Source: an uncultured Alphaproteobacteria bacterium
Lineage (GTDB): Bacteria; Pseudomonadota; Alphaproteobacteria; HIMB59; GCA-002718135
Direction of reading: 5' to 3'
NCBI GenBank assembly: GCA_902602135.1
Contig: CACKQA010000001.1
Span: 1-56,748, forward strand
Length of the DNA stretch: 56,748 bases
This document shows, in pieces, positions 31,713 through 44,389 of this stretch (the first letter of the stretch is position 1; every line of letters starts with the position of its first letter). A program made the translations under genes and the position numbers. A model generated the notes under the pieces. It was not told the origin of the DNA. It saw nothing but the letters and a program-made list of their open reading frames with translations, and searched no databases.

Positions 31713-33032
31713 CTAAATTTTTTCTCCTGCTGGTTTTCCATATCCAACATTTTTTTTCCCATATCTTCTCACTCTAACGTTACATTGTTCAGCGTGACCA
31801 ATAAATCCTTCAAGGTGTGAAAGTCTAGATCCATATTCTCCAATAAGTGTAGCTGCTTCATCGGTTGTAATCTTTTGATAAGTGTGGGTTTTAATAAACT
31901 TACCAACCCACAAACCACCAGTATATCTTCCAGCTTTTTTGGTAGGAAGAGTATGGTTAGTACCTATCACTTTGTCACCGTTAGCAACATTGGTTCTAGC
32001 ACCTAAAAATAAAGCGCCATAAGATGTCATTTTTTCTAAAAACCAATCATCTTTTTTTGTCATAACTTGAACATGCTCTGAAGCTATTTCGTTTGCTTTA
32101 GATAGCATCTCCTCATAGGTATCACACAAAATCATTTCTCCATAATCTCTCCAGCTAGTACTTGCTGTTTCTTTAGTAGGTAAAATTTCTAAAATTCTAT
32201 CAATCTCTTTAAATGTTTCTTCTGCAAGTTTTCTTGAGTTTGTTATCATCACAGCAGGAGAATTATATCCATGTTCTGCTTGTCCTAATAAGTCTGTTGC
32301 ACATATTTCACCATCAACAGTTTCATCTGCAATAACCATTGTTTCAGTTGGACCAGCAAATAAATCGATACCAACTTTGCCATACAATTGTCTTTTTGCT
32401 TCAGCAACAAATGCATTGCCAGGTCCAACAAGCATATCAACAGGTTTAATCGTTTCTGTACCTATAGCCATAGCACCAACTCCTTGCATTCCTCCCAAAA
32501 CATAAATTTCGTGAGCACCGCCCATTTTCATTGCTGTAACAACAGCTGGATTTGGCTTACCTTTAAAAGGCGGTGTAGTAGCAACAATTCTTGGAACCCC
32601 AGCAACAGAGGCAGTAACAACTGACATATGAGCAGAAGCTACCATTGGGAATTTTCCGGCAGGTACATAACATCCAACTGCTTGCACTGGTATATTTTTA
32701 TGACCAAGTATCACACCCGGATGCGTTTCTACTTCTAATTCACTTAATGTTTTAAGTTGTGCTTCCGCAAATGATCGCACTTGTTTTTGAGCAAATTTAA
32801 TATCTTCTTTGTCATCATCAGAGACTTCACTCATTAATTGATTTATTTGCTCTTTACTTAATCGAAAACTATCTGGAGAATAGTTATCAAATTTTTGAGA
32901 TAACTCTCTAATATGTTCATCTCCTTCTGATTCAATTTTACTTAATGTTTCCTCAACAATTTTTTTTACTTTATCATTATCTTCAATTCTTTGTTTTTCA
33001 TCCAAACCTTTTTTTAAATATTCAATTGCCAT
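31713..33032 (-). CDS. Histidinol-dehydrogenase-family NAD-dependent alcohol-to-acid dehydrogenase (HisD paralog; HpsN-like candidate)
   Basis: 439 aa with a HisD-type core ([18 protein letters not shown]-terminal EGFIGHAEQ). It starts 2 nt after the upstream SnoaL-like gene. Confidence 0.75.
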
Positions 33033-33034
33033 AA

Positions 33035-34132
33035 TTATTTTTTATGAATTAATTTAAAGATATCAACACCTATTTGATCTAGTATGTGTGCTATATCGAT
33101 TGGTACCCAATTTTCTCTAATCAGCCCTTCATGATGTAAATAAAAATCCATAACTCTTATTGTAATTTTTTTATTAGTTGGCTCATAACCTAACCATTCT
33201 TTTGAACCATGAATGCATTCTATGCTATGCCAACCTCCAGTCATTGAATAATTACCATCACCAATTTCAATATAATGTCCAATTTTCCAATAATCCCTTT
33301 CTTTAAATGTAAGTCTAAATGGAAGTTGATGATATTCTACATATCCTTTTAAACCTCTTGCAGTTCCTATTCCTGCAGGTCCGTGCCACATCATTTTTGG
33401 ATGCCAATAATTTTTTTGAGGATGATTAAGTAATTTATCTCTTATATAATCTTTGTTTGAGTTTGGATCACTTTCGGGCTTAATATTTAAACTTCGCTGC
33501 ATGGCTAATGCTTGATTTAAAGATTCTAAAGATAATTCGTTGTCAAAATTTTCATTATTTTCTCCATCTCCAGTAATAGGCGCTGACCACATACCTTCTG
33601 CTCCTAAAGATTTATTAATTGGCCAGTGTCCAGCTTGTCTAATAAAATCAACTGTATCAATTAAAACATATGATTTTATAATTTTACCATTAGAGATTTG
33701 ATGAGCTTCGCAAGTTCTAAGATAAATATTTTTTTTTGTGGGTGTAACACCGAGCCATTCGTTGACAAATGTTCCAGTTAGATAGCTAACAAACGATACA
33801 AATACTTTGTCTCTATAAGATCCTCCAATTACAATTATATTTCTTCTTTCGAGATCTGGAAAAGCTTCTTTTAGAGGTATCCAAAGTTTATTTTTTATAT
33901 TCTCAACACCACTTATTTCATTTATTGGATGAAAAGCATTTAATTCAGCTTCTTCATGGTATAAGTTTTTTAAATTAACTCCTAATTCATCTAAAGGAGA
34001 TTCAGCAACTTTATTTAATAAATATTTAAATTTTTTTTTATTTTCTAAATTTTCACTTGTACTTAAATCTACAAAAATTATTTTCTTGTTTTCTTTTTCC
34101 CCTGTTTCAAAATCTTCAATTTTATTTGTCAT
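33035..34132 (-). CDS. Double NTF2/SnoaL-like (ester-cyclase-like) protein, paralog A
   Basis: 365 aa. It shares long motif blocks with 43316-44389: PDLERR, YWHPxxxWxGPAGIGTxRG, HQxPF and [11 protein letters not shown]...QIGxxIF. Confidence 0.5.
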
Positions 34133-34179
34133 AAAAATTAATTACATACTAATAAATATTAATTGATTTATTCAATAAT

Positions 34180-34194
34180 TTGAATAATATTCAA
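34180..34194. promoter_or_regulatory. Palindrome TTGAATA-A-TATTCAA (candidate LacI-family operator) plus an adjacent TTATTCAA half-site at 34168-34175
   Basis: It lies in the 89-nt divergent spacer between 33035-34132(-) and 34222-35193(+). Its half-sites are the same as in the 16-bp palindrome at 38342-38357. Confidence 0.5.
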
Positions 34195-34221
34195 AAAAAA
34201 TGAATAAAATATCATAAAGAT

Positions 34222-35193
34222 ATGTCAATTAATATTACCACAAGATTAGCAAAATTTGAGGAACTTATTCCAAGTACTATTCCTTTTGTAGAAGGAAAAT
34301 TAAAGGGACATCAAGATAGGAAAAATTATTCTGTTATAGGCCCAGGTGTTAGTGAAGATGCTAAACAAAATGTTAAAATAGCTGAAGCGCATGGCTTCAA
34401 TATTGGAGCTGTAAGTGCTGCTCCAATGAACGGTTCTGGATTACATAGCCATACAACTGCTGAAGTATTTATAATTCATTCTGGTGCTTGGCGTTTCTAT
34501 TGGGGAGTTGATGGCACAGAAGGAGAGGTAATACTTAAAAAAGGTGATATTGCTTCTTTCCCTACAAATATGTTTAGAGGTTTTCAAAATGTAAGCAAAG
34601 AAGAAGCGTTAATGTTTGTAGTTTTAGGTGAAAATGATCCAGGTGTAATCACTTGGACTCCAAAACTTTTAAAAGATGCAAAAGATTCTGGTATGGTATT
34701 AATGAATGATAATTCTTTAGTAGATACAGAAAAACAGAAAATTACTGATGAAACTAAAATTATTCAACCATTAAAAGAAGATGAATTAAAGAGTTTTGAT
34801 CATTATTCCTCAGAAGATATAGAAAAGTTTGTCATTCGATTTGATGAAAAAGATAAATACTTTGTTGATGATGAACACTATCAATCCAATAAAATTATTA
34901 ATTACCTTGATCAATTTAATATTCATAATAAATCATTTATTCCAAACATACCGCATTTAACAGGATTTAGCCTTTCACTTCTCCATGGAAAAAATGCCCA
35001 TATACATGAATACAAATTTGAGAAATCAGAAGTATATCATTGTTTATCTGGTGAATGGGAAATAGATTGTGATGGAGAGAAAGTAGTAATTAAGGACAAG
35101 GATACTTTTTCAGTACCAAAAAACTCATCACGATCAATTAAGCAGATAAGTGATGAGGATGGAAATTTATTTATTATAAGACAAACAAATTAA
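34222..35193 (+). CDS. Bicupin protein
   Basis: 323 aa with an N-terminal cupin (GSGLHSHTTAEVFIIHSGAW...GDIASFP) and a second C-terminal beta-barrel-like half (YHCLSGEWEIDCDGEKVVIKDKDTFSVP). Confidence 0.55.
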   Translation: MSINITTRLAKFEELIPSTIPFVEGKLKGHQDRKNYSVIGPGVSEDAKQNVKIAEAHGFNIGAVSAAPMNGSGLHSHTTAEVFIIHSGAWRFYWGVDGTEGEVILKKGDIASFPTNMFRGFQNVSKEEALMFVVLGENDPGVITWTPKLLKDAKDSGMVLMNDNSLVDTEKQKITDETKIIQPLKEDELKSFDHYSSEDIEKFVIRFDEKDKYFVDDEHYQSNKIINYLDQFNIHNKSFIPNIPHLTGFSLSLLHGKNAHIHEYKFEKSEVYHCLSGEWEIDCDGEKVVIKDKDTFSVPKNSSRSIKQISDEDGNLFIIRQTN

Positions 35194-35205
35194 GAATTCA
35201 GTTAT

Positions 35206-36180
35206 ATGAAAGGTTTTAATAACAAGTTTGAAAATCTTCCAGATTATATTCTAAAAATAACTCATCAGATATGGGAAGAAAAAGATGTTAACTCAATTAT
35301 GGAATATTATGCTGAAAATATTCCTGTTAGATCACCTATGGGAATCATTTATGGACCTAATACAGTAGTTGATGCAACTAATGCAACTTTAGACGAATTT
35401 CCAGATAGGCAATTATTAGGTGAAGATGTAATTTGGATTGGTAACGAAGATGAAGGGTTTTTATCTTCTCATAGAATTCTTAGTAAAGCCACTCATATAA
35501 AAGATGGTTTATATGGGAAAGCAACAAATAAAAAACTTGTATACAGAGTCATTGCTGACTGCGCTTGTAAGAATAATCAAGTTTATGATGAATGGTTAGT
35601 TAGAGATCAAGGAGCAATTGTTAGACAGCTAGAAATAGATCCAAAAAAATATGCAGCAATTTTAATAAAGCAAGAAGGTGGAATAAAGAATTGCATTAAA
35701 CCATTTGATAAGAATTCATCTCAAGAAACAAGTTATGCACCACCAATTTTATCAAAAAATAATATAGCTGATCAATATGCAGAAAATTTAGAAAACATTC
35801 TTAATATTAATTCTAAATCTACAATTGAAAAAAATTATGACAGATCAGTTCAACAATTTCAACCAGGAGGTTTTGTTTGTTATGGTATCGATGATGTAAC
35901 ATATTTCTGGCTAAATTTAAGACAATCTTTCCCAGATGCTCTTTTTAGAATAGAACATAAAAGTTTTACTGTAGAAGAAAATCAACCAAAAAAAGTTGCT
36001 ATACGCTGGTCTTTAGTTGGGAAGCACAGTGGGAATGGTATATTTGGGCAAGCTTCTAATTCTGAGATTTATATTATGGGAATTAATCATGCCGAAATAG
36101 GACCAAGAGGTATAAAGAACGAATGGGTTTTATTTGATGAAACTGCAATTTGGAAACAAATCTTGATAAAAACAGGTTAA
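35206..36180 (+). CDS. Double NTF2/SnoaL-like protein, divergent paralog B
   Basis: 324 aa in two halves, each with a SnoaL-like pattern (ITHQIWEEKD...DEWLVRDQ; ...AIRWSLVGKHSG...NEWVLFDE). Confidence 0.45.
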   Translation: MKGFNNKFENLPDYILKITHQIWEEKDVNSIMEYYAENIPVRSPMGIIYGPNTVVDATNATLDEFPDRQLLGEDVIWIGNEDEGFLSSHRILSKATHIKDGLYGKATNKKLVYRVIADCACKNNQVYDEWLVRDQGAIVRQLEIDPKKYAAILIKQEGGIKNCIKPFDKNSSQETSYAPPILSKNNIADQYAENLENILNINSKSTIEKNYDRSVQQFQPGGFVCYGIDDVTYFWLNLRQSFPDALFRIEHKSFTVEENQPKKVAIRWSLVGKHSGNGIFGQASNSEIYIMGINHAEIGPRGIKNEWVLFDETAIWKQILIKTG

Positions 36181-36187
36181 TTAAAAA

Positions 36188-37315
36188 ATGTCTAAAATAT
36201 TAACTACACATGTAGGCAGCTTGCCTAGATCAAAAGGACTTTCAGAAATTTTATTTTCTAAAGATCGGGGTGAAAAATTTATTAAAGAAGATTTCAATAA
36301 TATATTGAAAAAAAATGTTGAGACAATTGTTAAAAAACAGATCGAAGTTGGTATTGATTATATAAGTGACGGTGAAATGAGTAAAATAAGTTATGCCACT
36401 TATATAAAAGATAGGATAGATGGTTTTTCTGGAGAAAGTGAAAGAAGAGCACCAGCTGATTTAGATGATTTTCCAGAGTATAAAGAAAAAATAGCTAAAA
36501 GTGGGGGTACACCAACGTATAGCAGACCGTGTTGTACTAATGCATTAAAAATCAAAGATAAAGATTCATTAAATAAAGACTTAGAGAATTTTAAAAATTC
36601 ATTAGATAAAAACAATCATCAAAAAGCATTTATGAATGCTGCATCACCAGGTGTCATAAATGTATTTATGCCAAATAGGTTTTATAAAACAGATGATGAA
36701 TATTTACATAAACTTTCAGAAATTATGGCTATTGAGTATGAGACAATTACTAAATCAAATATACAAGTGCAATTAGATTGTCCTGATCTTGCATTAGCTA
36801 GACATATGAATTTTAAGGAATTATCCGAACAAGAATTTTTAAAACGTGCGGAAATTCAAATCGAGTGTTTGAATGAAGCTTTAACTAATGTAGATGTTAA
36901 TATGACTAGAATGCATATTTGTTGGGGAAACTATGAAGGACCTCATACACATGATATCCCACTAGAAAAAATATTACCAATAATTTTAAAATCTAAAATT
37001 AAATATTTTTTAATTGAGTCATCAAATCCCAGACACGCACATGAGTGGAAAGTTTTTCAAGATATTAAATTACCAAAAGATAAAGTTTTAGTTCCTGGTG
37101 TTATCGATTCAACATCAAATTTTGTTGAGCACCCTGAGGTTGTAGCAGATAGATTAATTCAGTTTTCAACGGTAATTCCAAAAGACCAACTAATGGCTGG
37201 AACTGATTGCGGATTTAGTACTTTTGCAGGATTTGGCAAAATTGATGAAAATATTTGTTATGAAAAACTTCATTCTTTAGTTGAAGGAACTAAATTAGCA
37301 AACAAAGTTATATAA
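36188..37315 (+). CDS. Single-domain MetE-like (cobalamin-independent methionine synthase C-terminal family) Zn-dependent alkyl/methyltransferase
   Basis: 375 aa with N-terminal TTHVGSLPRS and putative Zn ligands in MHICWGN and GTDCGF. Confidence 0.65.
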   Translation: MSKILTTHVGSLPRSKGLSEILFSKDRGEKFIKEDFNNILKKNVETIVKKQIEVGIDYISDGEMSKISYATYIKDRIDGFSGESERRAPADLDDFPEYKEKIAKSGGTPTYSRPCCTNALKIKDKDSLNKDLENFKNSLDKNNHQKAFMNAASPGVINVFMPNRFYKTDDEYLHKLSEIMAIEYETITKSNIQVQLDCPDLALARHMNFKELSEQEFLKRAEIQIECLNEALTNVDVNMTRMHICWGNYEGPHTHDIPLEKILPIILKSKIKYFLIESSNPRHAHEWKVFQDIKLPKDKVLVPGVIDSTSNFVEHPEVVADRLIQFSTVIPKDQLMAGTDCGFSTFAGFGKIDENICYEKLHSLVEGTKLANKVI

Positions 37316-37316
37316 T

Positions 37317-38315
37317 TTATCTAGATGTTTTTCTTTTTATTAATGTTCCTTGGATTAAATGACTAACGGCCTCATAATCTGGATCTTTAATATTATCATT
37401 AATAAGTTGAGTTACTAATTTTGACATTTGTCTCAAGGGCTGTTTTACAGTACTTAAATTGTAAGATGACCAGTTTGCCATTGAGATATCGTCATATCCA
37501 AATATTTCAATATCGTTAGGTATTTCAATTTTTGTATTTTTTTTAATGTAATCTAAACATCCAAATGCCATCGTATCATCTGCACAAAAAATAGCTGAGA
37601 TTTTTTTATTCGTTAAGATTTTTGCTGTTGCAGCATATCCACCTTCATATGTAAAATTTCCTTTTTGAGAGTATAATTTTAATTTTTTTGATTTTTTTAA
37701 TTTATTTTTAAATCCTTTACATCTTTCATTACTTACATAAGATCCTGTGGGACCTTCAATTAAACCAACTTCCTGATGGTTATTTTTGATTATTTGATCT
37801 GCAATTAATTCACCACCAAATCTATGATTACATGCAACTGAACTTATAGTAGGGATATCCCAAGCTCTATTATAGGCTATAATTTGAATCTTTTTATTTA
37901 AGCAATTTTCAACAAATTGATCTGTTGGTTTAGTTGCTGAAATTATTGCAACTAATCTTTCTTTCAAATATGGCTGAATGAGCTTATCGTCTAATTCTTC
38001 ACCATCATCAGTTGTTATCAATAAAATTCTAAAACCCGATAAACGTAGCGCTTCATGCAATTCAGTTAATACCTCTGGATAAAATCGATTGGTTATATAA
38101 GGTAAAATAACTCCCACTAGTCCACTATCTTCAATATTTTGAGAATCTTGCAAAAAAGTTTGAGGTTTATATTTTAGTTTTTTGGCAGCTTCAAGAACCC
38201 TTAGTTTTGTCCTGCTTGAGATGCTTGCACCTTTAGTAAAACATCTTGAAACAGCTGATTGAGATACTCCTGCTAATTTTGCGACATCTTGGGATGTGGC
38301 ATTTTTATTCATCAT
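37317..38315 (-). CDS. LacI-family transcriptional regulator
   Basis: N-terminal HTH ATSQDVAKLAGVSQSAVSR plus a periplasmic-binding-protein-like sugar-binding core. I moved the start to ATG 38315 (AGGA 5 nt upstream). The ORF-track start at 38357 is a TTG inside the palindrome. Confidence 0.85.
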   Translation of the reverse strand: MMNKNATSQDVAKLAGVSQSAVSRCFTKGASISSRTKLRVLEAAKKLKYKPQTFLQDSQNIEDSGLVGVILPYITNRFYPEVLTELHEALRLSGFRILLITTDDGEELDDKLIQPYLKERLVAIISATKPTDQFVENCLNKKIQIIAYNRAWDIPTISSVACNHRFGGELIADQIIKNNHQEVGLIEGPTGSYVSNERCKGFKNKLKKSKKLKLYSQKGNFTYEGGYAATAKILTNKKISAIFCADDTMAFGCLDYIKKNTKIEIPNDIEIFGYDDISMANWSSYNLSTVKQPLRQMSKLVTQLINDNIKDPDYEAVSHLIQGTLIKRKTSR

Positions 38316-38341
38316 TTTTCCTTTTTTATGTATGCAAATGC

Positions 38342-38357
38342 TTGAATAATTATTCAA
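38342..38357. promoter_or_regulatory. Perfect 16-bp palindrome TTGAATAATTATTCAA (candidate LacI-family operator)
   Basis: It lies in the divergent spacer between the LacI gene and the ABC SBP gene, 27 nt upstream of the revised LacI start. Confidence 0.55.
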
Positions 38358-38415
38358 ACTGTTGCATTAATAAAATATTATAAATTAATATATTAATAAA
38401 TTATAGGGGAAACAA

Positions 38416-39630
38416 ATGAAAAAAATACTAGTATTATTTGCGATTTTCACATCATTTTTTTTCTTAGCCGGTACTAATGCAAAAGCTTGCGAGCTAAACA
38501 ATTCTGTACCAGTAACTTCTTTATCTGCAGGATTTGATGCCTGGAAAGTTGTTACTTCTGCTATGGAAGAGTGTGGAAATTTTACACCTACACTTGATCA
38601 AGAATACAGAGATAAGCTTGTTGCATCATTAGAAAGCAACCCATCTCAATTTACAATGGCAGGTGTTTCAGCTTCTACAAATGTATCGGTTCTTGATGCT
38701 GGTGTAACTAGACCACTTGACGATCTAGTTGCTAAATATGGAGACTCTCTACAAGATAATCAAAAAATTGTAATTGATGGAAAAATTATGGCAATTGCAA
38801 TGATGACAAATGCTCAACATTTATTTTACAGAGAAGATATTTTGAGTGATCTTGGTATAGATATTCCAACAACTTATGACGAGCTTTTGAAAGCTGCTAA
38901 AGTTATTAAAGATGCTGGAGTTGTAGATTATCCACTTGGTGGAACATTCAAGTCAGGTTGGAATTTAGGAGAAGAATTTGTAAATATGTATTTGGGTTTT
39001 GCTGATTCTTTTTTTGATGGAAATATGCCAGCAGTTAATAATAACGATGGCTATGAAACACTTAAGATGATGAAAAAACTAACAGAATATATGGATCCTG
39101 AGTATTTAACTTCAGATTCTACATATGTTCAACAACAATTCCAACAGGGTAAGATTGCTCTTGCAAACCTTTGGGCGTCTCGAGCTGGTGCTATGGATAA
39201 TGCAGAGGAGTCAACAGTTGTTGGATTAGTAAAGTTTGCATCAGCGCCTAAAGCAAAAAAGAATGGTAAACCAGCATCTACATTATGGTGGGATGGTGTT
39301 GTTATAGCTAAAAATGTTACTGATGAAGAAGCAGAAGCAGCATTTAAATTAGCTATGGTTGGATTAGATCCAGCAAACTTAGGAGCGAACCCTGAAGCTG
39401 CTCCTTGGCTGTCTAATGCGTTTGATCCAGCTCCATCAAATATTGGTGCAATTTTAACTGCAAAATCTGGAGCAGCTCCTTATCCTGCATCAGCAAAAAT
39501 GAGCACACTCCATGGAGTCTTAGGTGCTGCTATTGGTGATTATTTGACTGGCGCAGCTACTGCAAAAGCTACTCTAGAAAAAATTGAGGCTGATTATATT
39601 ACTGCAGCAACAGAAAAAGGTCTCTTATAA
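38416..39630 (+). CDS. ABC transporter substrate-binding protein, sugar/polyol type (family 1)
   Basis: Signal peptide and 404 aa, followed by MalF/MalG-type permeases. Confidence 0.8.
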   Translation: MKKILVLFAIFTSFFFLAGTNAKACELNNSVPVTSLSAGFDAWKVVTSAMEECGNFTPTLDQEYRDKLVASLESNPSQFTMAGVSASTNVSVLDAGVTRPLDDLVAKYGDSLQDNQKIVIDGKIMAIAMMTNAQHLFYREDILSDLGIDIPTTYDELLKAAKVIKDAGVVDYPLGGTFKSGWNLGEEFVNMYLGFADSFFDGNMPAVNNNDGYETLKMMKKLTEYMDPEYLTSDSTYVQQQFQQGKIALANLWASRAGAMDNAEESTVVGLVKFASAPKAKKNGKPASTLWWDGVVIAKNVTDEEAEAAFKLAMVGLDPANLGANPEAAPWLSNAFDPAPSNIGAILTAKSGAAPYPASAKMSTLHGVLGAAIGDYLTGAATAKATLEKIEADYITAATEKGLL

Positions 39631-39646
39631 TTTTATATAATTGTAT

Positions 39647-39680
39647 ATTACTCCCCTTTTAAAATCTTAAGGGGGGTAAT
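39647..39680 (+). other. Intercistronic 12-bp stem-loop after the SBP gene
   Basis: ATTACTCCCCTT ... AAGGGGGGTAAT (one G-U pair). Its 3' arm includes the G-run 13-18 nt upstream of the next ATG. Confidence 0.5.
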
Positions 39681-39688
39681 ATTAGTAA

Positions 39689-40708
39689 ATGAAAAAATCT
39701 ACTTTTTTAGTTTTTACAATGCCATCATTTATAATGATGACATTATTTATTGCCTTACCTCTTCTAATAGTTTTAATTCAAAGTTTTCAATTCAACCAAG
39801 ATGTATTAGAAACGATTGAAAGAGAAAATTGCGATCCTTTTGGATGTAAAACAGAAACAATTACCGTTCCTGTATTAGATGAAAATGGAAATAAAATAAA
39901 AAATAATATTTGGGTAGGCTTTCAAAATTATAAAAATATTTTGAAATTTGAACAATTATCATCTGTTATTTCAAATGATGGTTTTGAATGGAGTAAAATA
40001 AGATCTATTGATTTTTATAAAGCTCTAAGGTTTACACTAACATTTACATTTATTACTTTACCATTTGTAATAATCTTAGGTTTAATATTAGCTCTATGCG
40101 TTAATGTTTTAATTAATAGATTGAAAGGTCCAATAATTTTTATAACCTTGCTCCCATTTATAATTACACCTGTAATAGGTGCTTTATCAATAAAATGGTT
40201 ATTTATAGGAGATGGTATATTAACTTTATTTTTAGAAAATATTTTAGATAAAGATATTGCCCTATTTTCTCAAGGCTGGACGATAGAGATTCTAATGCTT
40301 TTTTATAGAGTTTGGCACACTATACCTTTTGCCTTTGTTATTTTTTATGCAGGACTACAAACTGTCGATAAAGAAAAAATTGAGGCAGCATTTGTAGATG
40401 GGGCAAATAGACTTCAGCGTTTAAGATTTATTATAATTCCGCATATCATGCCATTAATAGTATTTGTTGCTTTAATTCATTTAATGGATTCATATCGAGT
40501 TTTTGATGAAATTGTTGGTTTTAGTGCTTCTGGATTTAGGATTTCATTACAATGGATGACTTATGATTTCTTGAGAATTGATGATTCTGGAACAAGATCT
40601 ATTGGAAGAGCATCAGCTACTTCTGTTCTTACAATGATAGGAATTATAATAATATTAATTCCAGTTTTAAGAAGAACTTTTAAAGAGCAAAAAGAAAAAA
40701 GATTATAA
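39689..40708 (+). CDS. ABC transporter permease (MalF-like)
   Basis: 339 aa polytopic protein with an EAA-type loop (IEAAFVDGANRLQRLRFIIIP). Confidence 0.85.
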   Translation: MKKSTFLVFTMPSFIMMTLFIALPLLIVLIQSFQFNQDVLETIERENCDPFGCKTETITVPVLDENGNKIKNNIWVGFQNYKNILKFEQLSSVISNDGFEWSKIRSIDFYKALRFTLTFTFITLPFVIILGLILALCVNVLINRLKGPIIFITLLPFIITPVIGALSIKWLFIGDGILTLFLENILDKDIALFSQGWTIEILMLFYRVWHTIPFAFVIFYAGLQTVDKEKIEAAFVDGANRLQRLRFIIIPHIMPLIVFVALIHLMDSYRVFDEIVGFSASGFRISLQWMTYDFLRIDDSGTRSIGRASATSVLTMIGIIIILIPVLRRTFKEQKEKRL

Positions 40709-41841
40709 TGGAAAGTAAACTTTTTAACTTAACCACGCCTCTTAAAATTATTGTTTCAATTACAATAATTACGTGGTGTATAATTGCTTTATTCCCGCTC
40801 TTATGGATTGTTGTAATGTCAATAAAACTTCCTGTTGATTCTTTTGCTTCCAATCCTTTAAAGGTAATAATTGGTCCAAGCACAAAAGAACAGGTTGGAG
40901 GTCTATCTTTTGTTAACTTTATTTTTCTTTTTCTATCAATTTATTTGTTTTATAAATTATACCAAATAAGAAAAATTTTATTTGATTTAATTAATCCTAT
41001 TTTAAAATTTTCTTTAATTACTTTTTTCATTTTATTCATTTTATATATAACTATTTCCTTCATATTATTTTTTTTAATTCAAAATAATTTATCTGAATTT
41101 GTAAATATATTATTTTCAAATTTAGAATTCTTAAAAATTTTTTCTTACCCAATCATAGGTTTTACTCCTCAGCATTATTTGTCTGTTTGGGTTGGTAATG
41201 AATTTTATAAACAATTCTTAAATACTATGATTGTAACAGGTGGGGTTGTTACAATATCATTAACTGTTGGAACACTAGCTGGTTATGGATTAGCAAGAAG
41301 TAATTCTATGATTGCCTTTTGGCTTTTAATTTTTGCTTTAATTTTTAGAGCTTTACCTCATTCTGTTTTGGTTACTGGTTATTTAGAACCTTTTATAAAT
41401 TATGGATTATATGGAAAAAAAATTGCTGTTATTGTTTTGTTAGTAGCTATTAACCAACCTTTTACAATATGGATGCTGAGATCATTTTTTATGAATATAC
41501 CTCAAGATTTAGATGAAGCTGCTCAAATTGATGGATGTAATCCTTTTCAAGCTTTCTGGAAAGTTGTGATGCCTTTAATGTGGCCAGGTGTAATTACAAC
41601 AGGATTATTTTCTTTCTTGTTAGCTTATAATGATTATCTTGTTGCAGCATTATTATTAGATGGACAATCACAAACTATGGTTCCAGCAATTATGCAATAT
41701 TTTAATATGGAAACTAAAATGACAGATTTAGTTGAGTCAATTGCTGCTGCTGCATCAATTACCGCACCATTGTTTTTGTTAGTGATGTTTTTCCAAAAAC
41801 AAATAGTGTCTGGTTTAACTCAAGGTGCAGTAAAGGGTTAA
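40708..41841 (+). CDS. ABC transporter permease (MalG-like) with an extra hydrophobic insertion
   Basis: EAA-type loop LDEAAQIDGCNPFQAFWKVVMP. It is 377 aa against about 280 typical. The extra F/I/L-rich segment falls after TM1 (about residues 60-150). Confidence 0.8.
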   Translation: MESKLFNLTTPLKIIVSITIITWCIIALFPLLWIVVMSIKLPVDSFASNPLKVIIGPSTKEQVGGLSFVNFIFLFLSIYLFYKLYQIRKILFDLINPILKFSLITFFILFILYITISFILFFLIQNNLSEFVNILFSNLEFLKIFSYPIIGFTPQHYLSVWVGNEFYKQFLNTMIVTGGVVTISLTVGTLAGYGLARSNSMIAFWLLIFALIFRALPHSVLVTGYLEPFINYGLYGKKIAVIVLLVAINQPFTIWMLRSFFMNIPQDLDEAAQIDGCNPFQAFWKVVMPLMWPGVITTGLFSFLLAYNDYLVAALLLDGQSQTMVPAIMQYFNMETKMTDLVESIAAAASITAPLFLLVMFFQKQIVSGLTQGAVKG

Positions 41842-41875
41842 CAAGAATATGATAATTATTTATTAAAATTATAAG

Positions 41876-42535
41876 ATGAAATACAAAGCATTACTTTTTG
41901 GATCAATTGGAACACTGATTGAATCTTCTAATATCCAACGTAATTCATTTAACGAAGCCTTTAAAGAAGCTGGTTTAGATTGGTATTGGGACGAGCAAGA
42001 TTATAGAATTTTATTAAAAAAATCAGGTGGCACTAAGAGAGTAGAAGATTTTGCAGAAAAAAATAATATCAATGTTAATGCATCACAAATTAGAGATAGA
42101 AAAACAGAATTATTTAGTTCATTCATTATTCAAAACAAACAAAAATTAAGAGAAAGTGTTTATGAAATGATTAGATATACTAAAGATAATAATATTAAAC
42201 TTGCATTCTCAACTTCTACAACTGTAAATAATGTAGAAGCTGTATTTGAAAGTCTTTCTAATCAAATTTCAAAAGCGGATTTTGATTTTATTGGAAATAG
42301 ATCATTTGTTAACAATGAAAAACCTCATCCAGAGATATATAAAGTAACACTAGAAAAATTAAATTTAAAACCTGAAGAATGTCTTGCAATTGAAGATACA
42401 GAGGAAAGTAGTAATGCCGCTGTTAATGCAAGTGTTAAATGTATTGCATTTCCAGGTGATTTTCACAAAGAAAATAAATTTGATATGTGCATCAAAAAAA
42501 TGAATTTATTAGATCAAACCATTTTTTCATTGTAA
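41876..42535 (+). CDS. HAD-fold protein with a degenerate motif I (FGSIGT instead of DxDGT)
   Basis: Motifs II (AFSTST), III (EKPHPEIY) and IV (AIEDTEES) are present. Both motif-I aspartates are replaced (codons gga tca att at 41900-41908). Confidence 0.6.
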   Translation: MKYKALLFGSIGTLIESSNIQRNSFNEAFKEAGLDWYWDEQDYRILLKKSGGTKRVEDFAEKNNINVNASQIRDRKTELFSSFIIQNKQKLRESVYEMIRYTKDNNIKLAFSTSTTVNNVEAVFESLSNQISKADFDFIGNRSFVNNEKPHPEIYKVTLEKLNLKPEECLAIEDTEESSNAAVNASVKCIAFPGDFHKENKFDMCIKKMNLLDQTIFSL

Positions 42536-42548
42536 ATTATACGCATAA

Positions 42549-43316
42549 ATGTTTCTAAAAAAATTCGAAGTAAAAGATAAGACTGCGCTTGTTACAGGTG
42601 CAGGTAAAGGGATTGGTAAAGCATCTGCAATCGCACTGGCAGAAGCTGGAGCAAATTTAATAATTATAAGTAGAACAGAAAAAGATCTTATAGCTGTTAA
42701 AAACCAAATTAAAAAAATTAAAAGAAAATGCAACTACTTTGTTTGTGATGTAACAAATTTAAAAGAAATAAAAAAAATATTTTCTAAAATTCCAAAATTA
42801 GACATATTAGTAAATAACGCTGGAACAAATAGGCCAGAATATTTTACTAAAATTAAAAGAAAAGATATGAGTGAAGTGGTTGATCTTAATATTAAAGCAT
42901 CATTTGATATTGCTCAATTAGCAACAAAAATTATGCTAAAATCAACAAATAGAAAAAAAAGTGGTGGATCAATTATAAATATTTCATCTCAGTTAGGTAA
43001 AGTTGGAGCTCCTCTTAGAAGTGTTTACAATATGACCAAGTTTGGCGTTGAAGGTCTAACTAAAGGAATGGCTATCGATTTAGCAAAACACAACATTAGA
43101 GTTAATTCAGTTTGCCCTACATTTGTTGAAACTCCTATGGTTAAAAAATTTTTCAAAGATAAAAATTTTAAAAAATCTGTTATTGAAAATATACCTTTAG
43201 GAAAAGTAGCAACAGAAAGTGATATTGCTAGTGCAGTAGTGTATCTTGCCTCTGATGCTGCATCGATGATAACTGGCTCTTCATTAGTAATTGATGGAGG
43301 ATGGACTGCTAAATAA
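42549..43316 (+). CDS. Short-chain dehydrogenase/reductase
   Basis: TGAGKGIGKA, NNAG and an S...YNMTK catalytic triad pattern, at 255 aa. Confidence 0.9.
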   Translation: MFLKKFEVKDKTALVTGAGKGIGKASAIALAEAGANLIIISRTEKDLIAVKNQIKKIKRKCNYFVCDVTNLKEIKKIFSKIPKLDILVNNAGTNRPEYFTKIKRKDMSEVVDLNIKASFDIAQLATKIMLKSTNRKKSGGSIINISSQLGKVGAPLRSVYNMTKFGVEGLTKGMAIDLAKHNIRVNSVCPTFVETPMVKKFFKDKNFKKSVIENIPLGKVATESDIASAVVYLASDAASMITGSSLVIDGGWTAK

Positions 43317-44389
43317 TGATTTCTAGAGAATTAAAAAATTTTTTTGCCAACTATCAGATTGCAACTCAAACATTTAACAAAAAGACAATTGAAAAATCAT
43401 TAAGCAATTATTTTACAAAAGAATCTTTATTTAATTTTTGCCATCCTTTTGGAACTTTTAAAGGTTTAAATAATTTTCTTTCCAAATGTATTTTGCCATT
43501 ATTGGATAGTATCCCTGATCTAGAAAGAAGAGATATGATTATTATGGCGGGAAAAACCCCTGAAGGGCAAAAATGGATAGGTACAATGGGTAATTATATG
43601 GGAACTTTTATAAAACCATACTTAGATATTCCACCAACAGGCAATTTAATTCATATGCGCTATCATGAGTTTTTTAAAATAGAGGAAAATAAAATTACTG
43701 AAGTACAATCTATTTGGGACTTACCTGAAATTATGATGCAAGCAAATGCATGGCCAATGTCTCCTCAACTTGGTGCATTTCTGTGTACCCCAGCTCCTAT
43801 GACTGGAGATGGCTTGTCAATAAATGGAGAAAAGAAAGAAAATTTTGATCATGTTATAGATATGTTAAATGATTTATCCTTACATCCTAAAAATCCAGAT
43901 CCAAAAATTATGAATCTAGAAAAATATTGGCACCCAAATCTTAATTGGTACGGACCAGCCGGAATTGGAACAGGTAGAGGTATAGCAGGTTTCAGACATT
44001 GGCATCAAATCCCATTTTTAAGAGCAATGCCAGATAGAAAAGGTGGTTCATCAAATGAAAAATTAGCCACCGATGGCATGGAAGATTTGCAAACACACTG
44101 GATACATGAAGGAAATTATGTGTGTGAAACAGGTTGGCCTAATATGAGATTAACAATAACCAATGATGGCTGGATGGGTATTGCTCCATCAAATCAAGCA
44201 CTAGAAATGAGAAGTCTTGATTTCTGGAGGCTAGAAAATGGTTTGATTAGAGAAAATTGGGTCTTAATTGATTTACTTGATATTTATAGACAAATTGGAA
44301 TCAATATATTTGACAGAATTAAAGAGTTTAATAAAGCTCGTCAAACAGGACATATCAATTTATCTGATGGATTAGATGTTTTAAAGTAG
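43316..44389 (+). CDS. Double NTF2/SnoaL-like protein, paralog C (closest to 33035-34132)
   Basis: 357 aa with shared blocks PDLERR, YWHPNLNWYGPAGIGTGRG, HQIPF and [24 protein letters not shown]. Confidence 0.5.
   Translation: MISRELKNFFANYQIATQTFNKKTIEKSLSNYFTKESLFNFCHPFGTFKGLNNFLSKCILPLLDSIPDLERRDMIIMAGKTPEGQKWIGTMGNYMGTFIKPYLDIPPTGNLIHMRYHEFFKIEENKITEVQSIWDLPEIMMQANAWPMSPQLGAFLCTPAPMTGDGLSINGEKKENFDHVIDMLNDLSLHPKNPDPKIMNLEKYWHPNLNWYGPAGIGTGRGIAGFRHWHQIPFLRAMPDRKGGSSNEKLATDGMEDLQTHWIHEGNYVCETGWPNMRLTITNDGWMGIAPSNQALEMRSLDFWRLENGLIRENWVLIDLLDIYRQIGINIFDRIKEFNKARQTGHINLSDGLDVLK

Follow-up and report, generated by a model that had tools for sequence, protein, structure and literature searches.

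Relatives of two of the proteins discussed here are the DHPS-3-dehydrogenase HpsN, in which a diagnostic histidine of the motif GRY(A/S)H binds the sulfonate, and cobalamin-independent methionine synthase (MetE), which has a folate-binding domain in addition to its catalytic domain. Operators of LacI-family repressors usually have CG at their centre. SAR11 (Pelagibacterales) are the most abundant bacteria of the ocean, and in the window (the whole stretch of 56,748 nucleotides that was analysed) such genes and sites lie together at 31713-44389 (Table 1). We consider it likely that this region is a SAR11 substrate-inducible uptake-and-catabolism island under one LacI/GalR-family repressor. The literature on the gene combination and on candidate substrates yielded no paper describing the cluster, in line with the preliminary description, which had matched the enzyme combination to no described pathway and whose gene calls were all upheld at the Pfam level.

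Table 1. Genes and predicted composite operators of the island, with positions in the window
Feature	Position	Strand	Basis or content
HisD-family four-electron alcohol dehydrogenase, G-K-F-P-M type	31713-33032	-	Pfam Histidinol_dh
Sno1, two-domain NTF2/SnoaL-like	33035-34132	-	Pfam SnoaL + SnoaL_2
Composite operator O2	34163-34209		Sno1/bicupin divergent promoter region; conserved block around TTGAATAATATTCAA
Bicupin	34222-35193	+	Pfam Cupin_2 x2
Sno2, two-domain NTF2/SnoaL-like	35206-36180	+	Pfam
Core-MetE-like Zn enzyme	36188-37315	+	Pfam Meth_synt_2
LacI/GalR-family repressor	37317-38315	-	Pfam LacI HTH + Peripla_BP_1/3/4; 332 aa from ATG 38315
Composite operator O1	38332-38367		lacI/SBP divergent promoter region; ATGCAA-N4-TTGAATAATTATTCAA-N4-TTGCAT; core 38342-38357
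CUT1-type (SBP_bac_1) periplasmic solute-binding protein (SBP), lineage A	38416-39630	+	Pfam
ABC permease	39689-40708	+	Pfam BPD_transp_1
ABC permease	40708-41841	+	Pfam BPD_transp_1
HAD-fold protein	41876-42535	+	Pfam HAD_2
Classical SDR oxidoreductase	42549-43316	+	Pfam adh_short
Sno3, two-domain NTF2/SnoaL-like	43316-44389	+	Pfam; start overlaps SDR stop

Results

Both palindromes of the preliminary description were found in place. The TTGAATAATTATTCAA and TTGAATAATATTCAA patterns occur exactly once each in the window (0 mismatches), and dinucleotide-preserving shuffles gave means of 0.00 (16-mer) and 0.02 (15-mer), which agrees with the earlier view that the pair exceeds chance; with up to two mismatches, the additional matches in the window were intragenic and at chance level. 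The sites are larger than had been described, as each central palindrome has one half-site on either side. In O2, ATTCAA (34170-75), which ends the extra TTATTCAA at 34168-34175, is followed after N4 by TTGAATAATATTCAA (TTGAATA-A-TATTCAA, 34180-34194) and after N6 by TGAATA (34201-06). The two SAR11 palindromes differ in spacing by one base (15 vs 16 bp), and their centre is AT, in contrast to the usual CG of LacI-family operators, those of the orthologous clusters included. O1 is located about 34 bp upstream of the start of lacI. Its right arm overlaps TTCAAA-17-TATTAT (38353-38381), which is the sole sigma-70-like match found for the SBP operon. The sigma-70 scan was uninformative in this DNA of 30% GC (66 matches vs 79 expected), so the overlap with the promoter was judged by position alone.

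The palindromes appear to be conserved operators. Among SAR11 genomes from 58 species-level representatives, the O1-type 16-bp site was present in 58/58 related lacI/SBP intergenic regions and O2 in all 51 of the 51 loci having a bicupin/Sno1 intergenic region, which answers for Pelagibacterales the conservation check proposed in the preliminary description. Both operators are conserved blocks inside drifting intergenic DNA, the O2 block being at least 95% conserved. In the variant-B cassette, a third divergent promoter separates two extra NTF2 genes and carries another copy of the site, built in the same way; no additional good sites were present in the related loci scanned (about 1.1 Mb). 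The motif was absent from the bicupin/Sno1 spacer of two related loci, L061 and L062, that have the enzymes and the transporter. These versions of the module carry no LacI and thereby serve as a negative control; they also show that the module can exist without the repressor.

The mechanical ORF start of lacI, TTG 38357, falls within the palindrome; judging from the conserved N-terminus of the orthologues, the true start is ATG 38315. The closest NCBIfam models for the repressor are RbsR, CytR and PurR, every one below cut-off. In its visible N-terminal DNA-binding region (TSQDVAKLAGVSQSAVSRCFTKGASISSRTKLRVLEAA-KLKY), variants A and B differ by one conservative K/R change, and SAR11, Ruegeria and Marinovum, the three compared, have an identical recognition helix, VSQSAVSR.

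The same gene set (LacI, a CUT1 ABC importer, several double-NTF2 proteins, a bicupin, a core-MetE-like protein, an SDR and the special HisD-like dehydrogenase) is also present on replicons of Ruegeria, Marinovum, Octadecabacter, Ensifer and a marine Rhizobium, and partially in Vibrio and a haloarchaeon. Operators of the form TTG(C/A)A-N-CG-N-T(G/T)CAA are found in the Ruegeria, Marinovum, Rhizobium, Ensifer and Vibrio clusters. Beside orthologous LacI genes, the ABC/NTF2 divergent regions contain TTGCATTCGCATGCAA in Ruegeria, TTGCAAACGTATGCAA in Marinovum and Rhizobium and TTGAATACGTATGCAA, a hybrid of both half-site types, in Ensifer; the operator of the Vibrio cluster is TGAATACGAATGCA. In the Octadecabacter cluster, a TauD-family gene lies on the far side of an IS6 element.

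The SBP had only remote relatives in the PDB (sugar SBPs; SmoF E 1e-9) and no match to SAR11_0769/8HQQ. It is 62% identical to its counterpart in Marinovum, 59% in Ensifer and 51% in Vibrio; identity to the SBP of SAR11 variant B is only 40%. No ATPase gene for the permeases was found within the window, and one adjoins in L061, L062, Ruegeria, Marinovum, Octadecabacter, Rhizobium, Ensifer and Vibrio.

Sno1 has 2557 relatives in the protein collection, and its AF2 model (pLDDT 89.6) consists of two alpha+beta cones; its best Foldseek matches were Lsd19 and MonBI-MonBII, both of them two-NTF2 enzymes, with polyketide cyclases next. In Ruegeria, Rhizobium and Ensifer, a Sno2 orthologue (47-51%) adjoins the cupin gene, and in Ruegeria an orthologue of Sno3 (50%) adjoins the SDR gene. 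The bicupin keeps the metal site His-x-His-x3-Glu in its N-terminal barrel only, with H75, H77 and E81 invariant in 28 sequences; its AF2 model (pLDDT 81) gave as top Foldseek matches oxalate decarboxylase, MncA, vicilins, quercetin 2,3-dioxygenase and salicylate 1,2-dioxygenase. The SDR is below all specific NCBIfam cut-offs and has orthologues (37-43%) within the Ruegeria, Rhizobium and Ensifer clusters. The HAD-fold protein is probably not a phosphatase, because both catalytic aspartates are missing and motif I FDxDGT reads FGSIGT; the N-terminus FGSIGTL is conserved in the 47/47 SAR11 orthologues read and in L062. The core-MetE-like protein corresponds to the catalytic domain of MetE only. 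Its motifs (TTHVGSLPR, DGE, QLDCPD, H-I-C, IES, DCG) align with the residues by which MetE binds homocysteine (Ser/Glu/Asp) and Zn (His/Cys/Glu/Cys), all of which are kept, and it is 49-52% identical to proteins of Ruegeria, Marinovum, Octadecabacter and Rhizobium (Halobellus 37%).

The best PDB match of the HisD-like enzyme was HpsN (8v35, 399 bits; true HisD 259 bits), with 47.5% identity to CpHpsN, which places it by sequence as a sister group of HpsN. Equivalents of HpsN Lys353, Glu318/His319, Asp352, Gln248/His251 and His411 are retained. Orthologues of the same G-K-F-P-M type in Ruegeria, Rhizobium and Ensifer are 72-75% identical, and the motifs are the same in Ruegeria and Marinovum. 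The gene lies 2 nt downstream of Sno1 but outside the recently swept SAR11 block (33.0-44.5 kb), and it is replaced by a different paralogue in four loci; in SAR11, its assignment to the pathway therefore rests on the 2-nt spacing together with synteny in other orders.

Discussion

Phylogenetic footprints, the lack of the motif at loci without LacI, the shared operator type next to orthologous regulators of other orders and the identical recognition helix strongly back the earlier proposal that a single LacI-family repressor would control all the transcription units, and the matching palindromes are its predicted operators in a 12-gene island. The repressor may recognise TTGAAT/ATTCAA half-sites, with TTGCAT/ATGCAA tolerated as a variant, arranged as a central 15- or 16-bp palindrome that is flanked on either side, at a distance of 4-6 bp, by one extra half-site. 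O1 would cover the back-to-back promoters of lacI and of the SBP-permease-permease-HAD-SDR-Sno3 operon, and O2 those of Sno1-hisD-like and bicupin-Sno2-metE-like. Without inducer, LacI would occlude these four promoters, its own included (autoregulation); either the imported compound or an intermediate from early in the pathway would release it.

The preliminary description had combined one repressor and an undescribed pathway, both of which are supported, with a possibly sulfonated or methylated substrate, of which the sulfonated part was weakened. That the substrate could be sulfonated, with DHPS as one example, had been read from the flanking genes, xsc on one side (Xsc 954 bits vs the NCBIfam equivalog cut-off of 676) and a PTA_PTB-family phosphotransacylase (pta), a class-III aminotransferase and Ald on the other, and as the HisD-like enzyme is a relative of HpsN, the guess of DHPS had a real basis. 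However, G-R-Y-A/S-H of HpsN is G-K-F-P-M here, with Met in place of the sulfonate-binding His, and no inspected cluster from other taxa is embedded in sulfonate genes, which leaves the sulfonate reading weak and the module probably not a DHPS pathway. In addition, the swept block excludes the HisD-like gene and every sulfonate gene, and no desulfonating enzyme is found in the regulon. A methylated substrate is still plausible, judging from the Zn- and homocysteine-binding residues of the MetE-like protein.

In the proposed pathway of the island, the CUT1 ABC system, with its ATPase encoded elsewhere, would import a small polar metabolite, which would then be degraded. The core-MetE-like enzyme may methylate homocysteine or a similar thiol, the bicupin may carry out a metal-dependent step and the three double-NTF2 enzymes acid/base steps, and the HisD-like enzyme would perform a four-electron oxidation of a CH(OH)-CH2OH end beside an anionic group. 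We conclude that the regulon is probably real, that its pathway is widespread but, in the literature searched, undescribed, and that the catabolic module is old and widespread across taxa.

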